From NCBI RefSeq assembly GCF_003334355.1, contig NZ_QOWP01000003.1: a stretch of DNA of 64,000 bases. One strand, 5' to 3'. This document shows positions 58,709-59,045 of this stretch, one piece after another. The notes under the pieces are model-generated. The model had not been told where the DNA came from, ran no database searches, and was given only the letters and a program-made list of their open reading frames with translations. The DNA comes from Escherichia coli (GTDB lineage: Bacteria > Pseudomonadota > Gammaproteobacteria > Enterobacterales > Enterobacteriaceae). A program made the position numbers and the translations under genes. Position 1 is the stretch's first letter. Each line of letters opens with the position of its first letter.

Positions 58709-59045
58709 ATTGCCGGATGCGGCGTAAATGCCTTATCCGGCCTACGTTCGGCAACGGTTGTAGGCATGATAAGACGCGCAAGCGTCGCATCAGGCATCGT
58801 GCACCGATTGCCGGATGCGGCGTGAACGCCTTATCCGGCCTACGTTCGGCAACGGCTGTAGGCATGATAAGACGCGCAAGCGTCGCATCAGGCATCGTGC
58901 ACCGATTGCCGGATGCGGCGTGAACGCCTTATCCGGCCTACGTTCGGCAACGGCTGTAGGCATGATAAGACGCGCAAGCGTCGCATCAGGCATCGTGCAC
59001 CGATTGCCGGATGCGGCGTGAACGCCTTATCCGGCCTACAGTCAG
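58709..59045. repeat. Tandem array (~3.4 copies of a 98-bp unit) of REP/BIME elements in the aceA-aceK intergenic region
   Basis: Unit attgccggatgcggcgtgaacgccttatccggcctacgttcggcaacggctgtaggcatgataagacgcgcaagcgtcgcatcaggcatcgtgcaccg repeats at 58709, 58807, 58905 and partially at 59003. Confidence 0.9.

Follow-up and report, generated by a model that had tools for sequence, protein, structure and literature searches.

The spacer between aceA and aceK in the glyoxylate-bypass operon of Escherichia coli was analysed in a stretch of 64,000 nucleotides (contig NZ_QOWP01000003.1 of the assembly GCF_003334355.1), which is termed the window and whose coordinates are used below unless another record is named. 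The spacer was found to harbor a tandem array of 3.5 copies of a 98-bp unit, each constructed from two repetitive extragenic palindromic (REP) sequences in opposite orientation, which is one unit more than in the modal allele of the species and two more than in K-12. The array is probably best explained as a bacterial interspersed mosaic element of the type BIME-2 that gained one unit recently, that would act in the messenger RNA as a barrier and partial attenuator, and whose additional unit would be near-neutral. The presence of REPs in the aceA-aceK spacer has been part of the literature since the operon was sequenced.

Organization of the array in the aceA-aceK spacer

A single tandem array was delineated at 58709-59055 by Tandem Repeats Finder, which gave it a score of 645 and counted 3.5 copies with a period of 98, 97% matches and no indels; such an array is far beyond chance. 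An earlier note on this DNA had placed about 3.4 copies of a 98-bp unit at 58709-59045; the array itself was borne out, while its end was found to lie 10 bp further. The array is composed of seven REPs, four Y and three inverted Z2 in alternating orientation, which are separated by linkers of 10 nt and 14 nt. Each unit is thus assembled from a 37-nt Y REP (GTAGGCCGGATAAGGCGTTCACGCCGCATCCGGCAAT), the 10-nt linker, a 37-nt inverted Z2 REP (TGCCTGATGCGACGCTTGCGCGTCTTATCATGCCTAC) and the 14-nt linker, in agreement with the two palindromes per unit that had been noted before. In the order of transcription, the spacer consists of a 22-nt head, three 98-bp units, a fourth Y REP and a 25-nt aceK leader. 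The operon and the elements of the spacer, all on the minus strand, are as follows, with S and l denoting the 10-nt and 14-nt linkers.

60396-61997, minus strand: aceB, malate synthase A, first cistron (TIGR01344, 829 bits; matches the RefSeq annotation)
59062-60366, minus strand: aceA, isocitrate lyase, highly expressed upstream cistron (NCBIfam NF011645, 802.7 bits)
59062-59064, minus strand: aceA stop codon TAA, verified on the sequence
58684-59061, minus strand: aceA-aceK intercistronic spacer, 378 bp, from the gene coordinates
59045-59061, minus strand: small hairpin GCAAC-AACAACC-GTTGC directly 3′ of the aceA stop, seen in the sequence and as a helix in the predicted one-unit fold
58942-59039, minus strand: BIME unit 1 (Y 59003-59039, S 58993-59002, Z2 58956-58992, l 58942-58955)
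58844-58941, minus strand: BIME unit 2 (Y 58905-58941, S 58895-58904, Z2 58858-58894, l 58844-58857)
58746-58843, minus strand: BIME unit 3 (Y 58807-58843, S 58797-58806, Z2 58760-58796, l 58746-58759)
58959-59036, 58861-58938 and 58763-58840, minus strand: matches to naRNA4 (RF02564) in units 1, 2 and 3
58709-58745, minus strand: terminal, aceK-proximal Y REP with the variant loop GCATTTAC, from the sequence; partial naRNA4 match at 58705-58742
58684-58708, minus strand: aceK leader, 25 nt, TCTCTGCTCCTGATGAGGGCGCTAA, with the Shine-Dalgarno sequence GAGGG at 58690-58694, from the sequence
56947-58683, minus strand: aceK, isocitrate dehydrogenase kinase/phosphatase, very weakly expressed downstream cistron (NCBIfam NF002804, 944 bits)

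The three genes matched their NCBIfam equivalogs far over the cut-offs and follow each other in the order aceB, aceA, aceK in the glyoxylate-bypass operon, and their coordinates agree with the RefSeq annotation of near-identical records. The spacer length of 378 bp given in the earlier note was thereby verified. A promoter scan revealed no sigma-70-like promoter in the spacer, and an internal aceK promoter within the array is accordingly unsupported. The small hairpin behind the aceA stop belongs to the 22-nt head, which itself resembles the l linker.

The units are nearly uniform, as unit 2 repeats unit 1 exactly and unit 3 departs from both in one base of the l linker (AACC against AGCC), and comparison with strains PSS-12 and BL21(DE3) indicated that the extra copy relative to the 280-bp allele is unit 1 or unit 2. 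All seven 37-nt REPs start with GTAG or end with CTAC, and their arms are 83-86% complementary. Moreover, the Rfam model RF02564 (naRNA4), which describes two REP hairpins from the REP325 BIME array, was matched three times at full length on the transcribed strand (85.6 bits, the gathering score being 59.5; positions 1 to 77 of the 77-position model), the linker included. The same model also matched the single Y/Z2 pairs of the window at malM-lamB (28447-28530), malE-malF (32674-32758) and yjbE-pgi (42394-42470), all over the gathering threshold, and it should therefore be regarded as a generic BIME detector. In the published definition (PMC3333891), a BIME-2 combines y and z2 REPs that follow each other in tandem copies over short linkers, and judged from its sequence the ace array, with Y and inverted Z2 REPs in tandem and a copy number that varies between strains, fits this definition. 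Palindromes foreign to the dispersed Y/Z2 families can be excluded.

Allele spectrum and origin of the additional unit

The number of units at aceA-aceK was compared across 5,426 complete E. coli genomes, with the window's own genome lying outside this set. Alleles were counted by megablast under E-value cut-offs that let only a single long ungapped match pass; plain coverage misleads in this situation, as overlapping pieces give 100% coverage for shorter alleles too. In the median E. coli genome, the query region itself matched 25 places (up to 40 pieces being counted per record), which reflects the dispersal of REPs. The following counts were obtained.

At least 2.5 units: 2,628 of 5,426 genomes
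Exactly 3.5 units: 11 of 5,426 genomes (0.2%), and none with more units
K-12/O157-type allele of 1.5 units, 182-183 bp: about 1,000 of 5,426 genomes (~18%), an approximate count of which ~5% are partial matches from other alleles
Other alleles (215, 124 and 85 bp, and a REP-less 48 bp): about one third of 5,426 genomes

The modal allele is thus the 280-bp spacer of 2.5 units, which accounts for ~48% of the genomes (~2,617) and is carried by BL21(DE3) and PSS-12. In K-12 (NC_000913.3), a 182-bp spacer of Y-Z2-Y or 1.5 units separates the end of aceA at 4218413 from the start of aceK at 4218596; this is exactly the length that the earlier note had given. The window therefore carries one exact 98-bp unit beyond the modal allele and two beyond K-12, so that the extra copies claimed previously hold in full against K-12 but shrink to a single one against the norm, K-12 being a minority allele. 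The comparison of spacer lengths that had been proposed as a check was thus carried out, and a spacer of 378 bp, seen in 11 of 5,426 genomes, is not the norm.

Within E. coli, the number of REPs at this site ranges from 0 to 7. At the lower end, strain EC9682 (NZ_CP095271.1; 785-832 of the retrieved stretch) possesses a 48-bp spacer without REPs but with a canonical AAGGAG Shine-Dalgarno sequence, an allele that occurs in some B2-type strains and whose length was found in ~5 of 39 chromosomal rows sampled down the match ranking. The REP-bearing alleles carry GAGGG inside a predicted local hairpin instead of AAGGAG, and from this sequence difference the 48-bp allele might give quite different aceK translation.

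Outside E. coli, the site was surveyed by a pattern of the AceA C-terminus, a scan whose returns did not include the E. coli species representative. The type strain of Escherichia albertii, NBRC 107761, was found to carry a 542-bp spacer with 5.6 copies of a 91-bp Y/Z2 unit and 11 REPs (4756-5268 of the retrieved stretch), which is the largest array seen at aceA-aceK, while 2.8 units are present in E. whittamii. In Citrobacter, Pluralibacter, Kluyvera, Enterobacter and other Enterobacteriaceae, the aceA-aceK spacers are 75-128 bp long and hold a lineage-specific palindromic repeat, either REP-like pairs or CCCTCTCCC...GGGAGAGGG, which always forms a strong hairpin although the sequences are not homologous. 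Every enterobacterial genome sampled had its own palindromic element just after aceA, a useful result that is compatible with selection for a structured 3′ end of the aceBA segment as well as with a permissive insertion slot.

The closest genome to the window is that of PSS-12, which has identical 1.7-kb flanks on both sides of the array but a 280-bp spacer. Over 49.4 kb the two differ by 12 single-nucleotide polymorphisms (SNPs) and no indels, and the other BIME arrays are equal in length. Because the additional 98 bp represent the sole difference in length over the ~57 kb compared, the gain is concluded to be recent. The 11 genomes with 3.5 units display at least five array haplotypes and at least six backgrounds of the aceK and aceA flanks, from which it follows that the gain of a unit has been recurrent. 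Strains 3359, TUM9803 and M15 carry K-12 flanks, NT1F25 has flanks quite unlike those of the window, and Rosetta2-DE3 and BL21-RIPL match the window at 100% over the 951-bp query but only at 99.7% over 25.6 kb, for which reason a derivation of the window from BL21 was discarded. Furthermore, four Shiga toxin-producing E. coli (STEC) strains have one AceK protein and one array in common, and the units of strain SBF45 have since diverged by SNPs; such sequence patterns suggest that a gained unit can persist.

A recent single-step gain of one unit would most likely account for the window's allele. Candidate routes are unequal recombination between neighbouring units of identical sequence or replication slippage on them, and a further one would be the REP-associated transposase TnpA-REP/RAYT, for which Ton-Hoang et al. 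have proposed a model of BIME amplification (2012; PMC3333891). The resulting allele spectrum, with its mode at 2.5 units, an atypical K-12 at 1.5, a rare and recurrent 3.5 and 5.6 in E. albertii, is in itself a useful result.

Transcript ends, the proposed role and its alternatives

The AceB:AceA:AceK ratio in K-12/BL21 has been given as ~0.3:1:0.003 and attributed to premature termination in aceK (PMC5435950, in the passage citing Chung 1993). Two 3′ ends mapped by Term-seq in K-12 are relevant here (PMC7815308, supplementary file 1). The first, at 4218571, lies at the foot of the aceK-proximal REP and has a score of 1,115, whereas the second, at 4218963, corresponds to the AceK-int terminator with a score of 56,453 and an intrinsic terminator score of 5.9. 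The latter lies 368 nt into aceK, and its 3′ end is ~50 times stronger than that at the foot of the REP. The corresponding region is retained in the window.

58316-58400, minus strand: AceK-int small RNA region inside aceK, 100% identical to K-12 b4830, ending at the intrinsic terminator, which appears in the window as a terminator-like site with a hairpin at 58324-58345 and a T-run

On the K-12 data, premature 3′ ends of the ace operon map mainly to the AceK-int terminator, and so does the documented downshift of aceK. In the work of Chung (1993), inefficient translation of aceK reportedly contributes as well. For the statement of the earlier note that an effect of the REPs in this spacer on the downstream aceK portion of the transcript is known, no documentation was found: the passage of PMC5435950 citing Chung 1993 and PMC7815308 both place the downshift inside aceK. 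Literature searches revealed no paper linking aceK experimentally with REP or palindromic sequences, and no deletion experiment on the ace REPs. An RNase III-dependent destabilisation "near aceK" has been reported (PMC5371410), for which the main text and Table 1 of that paper give no coordinate, so that it cannot be placed in the array. By analogy with other REP elements, the array is most likely a barrier and attenuator that contributes to the aceK downshift rather than being its main cause.

According to this proposal, each REP would fold into a stable hairpin, and together the hairpins would block 3′-to-5′ exonucleases and partly attenuate transcription. REPs have been described as resistant to such exonucleases and as setting the stable 3′ ends of transcripts that were terminated further downstream (PMC6061677), and by comparison with malE-malF and REP325 the barrier might help to keep the aceBA message abundant and the aceK message scarce. 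The proposal is supported by the K-12 Term-seq signal that coincides with the foot of the aceK-proximal REP, while the main drop would occur further downstream, at the AceK-int terminator. As the extra unit is internal, it would not touch the aceK-proximal REP, the leader or the ribosome-binding site; indeed, the 25-nt leader is identical in the 182-, 280- and 378-bp alleles, and the aceK-proximal REP is likewise kept. In ViennaRNA predictions, each added unit brought about -53 kcal/mol of structure, and yet from zero to six units the unpaired probability remained constant at 0.20 for the aceK Shine-Dalgarno sequence, which is predicted to lie within a local hairpin through pairing of CTCC with GAGG, and at 0.27 for the initiation region. 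In addition, the model of Shinar et al. renders active isocitrate dehydrogenase (IDH) independent of the total kinase/phosphatase (PMC2645677). Because the accessibility is constant, the leader is unchanged, 0-7 REPs are tolerated and IDH is modelled as robust, the extra unit would most likely be neutral or nearly so.

Several points weigh against this explanation. The near-neutrality of 3.5 units is our inference from folding, natural alleles and a model of IDH activity. The Rho-dependent attenuation by REP325 appeared only with its full 12-hairpin array, and by analogy a step from five to seven hairpins could matter. The absence of any E. coli allele beyond 3.5 units among the 5,426 genomes and the rarity of 3.5 itself could reflect selection against longer arrays. 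The minimum-energy fold of ViennaRNA consists of long Y-Z2 duplexes and that of the Rfam consensus of two local hairpins, which makes the predicted in vivo fold of the ace array uncertain. The Y REPs show 0-2 and the Z2 REPs 2 mismatches to the consensus sequences of the literature; the identity as Y and Z2 is supported from another side as well, because the match to RF02564 is independent of that consensus.

The alternative that survives best, although we consider it unlikely, is the rheostat already suggested in the earlier note, in which each added BIME unit would raise attenuation, or the number of entry sites for RNase III or Rho, and strains with 1.5, 2.5 and 3.5 units would differ measurably in the AceK:AceA ratio, the variation being under selection. 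It draws on the ladder of truncated transcripts of REP325 and on a Rho-dependence that appears with the long array only and not with 2-4 hairpins; the authors of that study propose REPs as tunable dials. The large predicted gain of structure per unit, the RNase III effect near aceK, an allele spectrum that tops out at 3.5 units in E. coli and the palindromic element in the ace slot of every genus sampled point the same way. However, the predicted accessibility of the aceK ribosome-binding site does not change with copy number, the aceK-proximal REP and leader are the same in all three alleles, the dominant K-12 3′ end lies inside aceK, and IDH activity is modelled as robust to the amount of AceK. 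Moreover, alleles of 0-7 REPs coexist in E. coli, E. albertii has 11, and the 3.5-unit alleles sit on scattered tips and in one small clade, a pattern that does not hint at a sweep. A stronger form, in which array length would be a heritable dial whose steps from three to five to seven hairpins cross a threshold for Rho or RNase III, with gains and losses between 0 and 11 REPs being adaptive and altering AceK:AceBA and growth on acetate, rests on analogy with REP325 and appears less probable still. If copy number did alter AceK output, the ace alleles would constitute a natural allelic series for REP control of ratios within an operon; as a speculation, they might then be linked to the glyoxylate-shunt activity, in which B and K-12 strains are known to differ and between which there is a difference of one ace unit.

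That the true spacer of the source is 280 bp, with one identical 98-bp unit added by the assembler, is rather improbable. The earlier note had raised artefacts of assembly as a caveat, and this proved a real concern: the closest relative PSS-12 has 280 bp, and copies can only be counted by spanning a perfect repeat of 151 nt, because units 1 and 2 are identical. Rosetta2-DE3 and BL21-RIPL, which have consecutive accession numbers, are furthermore the sole 3.5-unit assemblies among 22 listed of the B lineage, the other 20 having 2.5. In both of them yjaB or rrf is joined to unrelated loci: Rosetta2-DE3 (NZ_CP083274.1 1797000-1822000) lacks the rrnE 16S/23S genes beside yjaB and is joined to tRNA-Cys/yecA, and BL21-RIPL (NZ_CP083273.1 1448372-1489322) lacks them likewise and is joined to sseA/yfhM. 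Judged from these sequences, the two "complete" RefSeq assemblies look mis-assembled at repeats, and they make it probable that spurious calls of one additional unit occur in public data; that two public B-strain assemblies are apparently wrong at the ace array is a useful result of its own. On the other hand, 3.5 units recur in nine further complete genomes, whose studies and lineages are unrelated and which include the four-strain clade and SBF45, the window is free of indels against PSS-12 over 49 kb with its other BIME arrays of equal length, and tandem repeats are usually collapsed by assemblers, not expanded.

A role at the level of DNA, in which BIME-2 elements are gyrase sites and topological insulators and extra units would absorb more of the positive supercoiling downstream of aceBA, is regarded as slightly less probable again. 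Gyrase binding, in vivo cleavage and topological insulation have been published for BIME-2 (PMC3333891), and the array directly follows a transcription unit whose induction is very strong, but B2 strains, with a 48-bp spacer devoid of REPs, get by without such an array. The DNA and RNA roles of the array are not mutually exclusive.

It is very improbable that the units are processed to small RNAs that condense the chromosome together with HU, as nucleoid RNAs of the naRNA4 type. The three full-length matches to RF02564 over the gathering score and a near-identical linker would favour such a function; nevertheless, the model matches any Y/Z2 BIME, with three further matches in the window, and a 2026 study of REP325 saw neither compaction nor a stable HU-naRNA4-DNA complex, nor any contacts between REPs (bioRxiv 10.64898/2026.03.23.713779), the group including an author of the original naRNA4 proposal. 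For the model element, the function is thus already largely refuted. The last alternative, a real small protein from one of the five in-array open reading frames (50-78 aa, ATG starts, both strands), can practically be dismissed, since these frames arise from the repeat itself on both strands. As 98 cannot be divided by 3, their length shifts with the number of units; shorter alleles lack them, and they are annotated as coding sequences in none of the related RefSeq records examined, just as the note that called them spurious had supposed.

Beyond the operon, an open reading frame of 524 aa (55404-56978, plus strand) runs towards aceK, with an overlap of 32 nt at the 3′ end of that gene. No NCBIfam match was obtained for it; the site is annotated in related records as an effector of type III secretion of the ShET2/EspL2 family (arpA/espL4 locus), and the frame is intact in PSS-12 and a pseudogene in BL21 and several other strains. 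Two further RNA elements in the window scored over the Rfam gathering score, namely a lysine riboswitch upstream of lysC (44370-44566, plus strand) and a match to the small RNA STnc430 (42182-42331, plus strand).

Comparison with known repeat systems

One close counterpart is the aceA-aceK element of K-12, which shares an identical head, aceK leader and AceK-int terminator with the window; what sets the window apart are two additional 98-bp units and two bases of the terminal Y REP. Two other classes of elements were considered and set aside. Liang, Rudd and Deutscher reportedly observed in 2015 that translation-regulating REPs begin within ~15 nt of the upstream stop codon; the first ace REP begins 23 nt after the aceA TAA, behind the 22-nt head. 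As for a contingency or phase-variable repeat, whose copy number would switch frequently within clones, ~2,617 genomes keep 2.5 units, 20 independent B-lineage assemblies all have 2.5, and the four related STEC strains all have 3.5.

Concerning position, the ace array resembles known stabilisers and attenuators, as it lies in a co-transcribed spacer with upstream expression far above downstream expression, the ratio being taken from the K-12/BL21 literature. The classical stabiliser is the malE-malF element, which is itself present in the window (32674-32758). As summarised in PMC6061677 (after Newbury 1987; Khemici and Carpousis 2004), its intercistronic REP hairpins block 3′-to-5′ exonucleases and bring about differential expression within the operon, like the proposal made here; in contrast, malE-malF is a single Y/Z2 pair with a deletion-tested effect, whereas the ace element is a tandem array to which the role would be assigned by analogy.

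The array REP325/naRNA4 at yjdMN is likewise an intra-operon Y/Z2 tandem between a better-expressed upstream and a poorly expressed downstream gene, and its unit is nearly identical to the ace unit, linker included (85.6 bits over the full length). It was reported by Harris et al. that REP325 has a stabilising effect on the gene before it and attenuates the gene behind it ~8-10 fold, with a ladder of truncated RNAs, and that Rho-dependence is seen with the full 12-hairpin array only and not with 2-4 hairpins (2026; bioRxiv 10.64898/2026.03.23.713779). REP325 has 12 hairpins, against seven of the ace array in the window, three in K-12 and five in most strains. By this analogy, the ace array would be expected to act as an upstream stabiliser and downstream attenuator, although the dual role is experimentally shown only for REP325 and the ace operon has a separate terminator inside aceK.

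With the BIME-2 family in the classification of Gilson, Bachellier and Hofnung (PMC3333891), the ace array shares alternating Y and Z2 REPs, short linkers, tandem copies, a transcribed intergenic site and a number that varies between strains, and gyrase binding is known for the BIME-2 elements of the literature. No essential difference was found, and the array is the aceA-aceK instance of this family with a rare allele of 3.5 units. Differences in BIME-2 copy number between strains have already been published, and the 3.5-unit allele of the ace operon is a rare instance of this long-known polymorphism.

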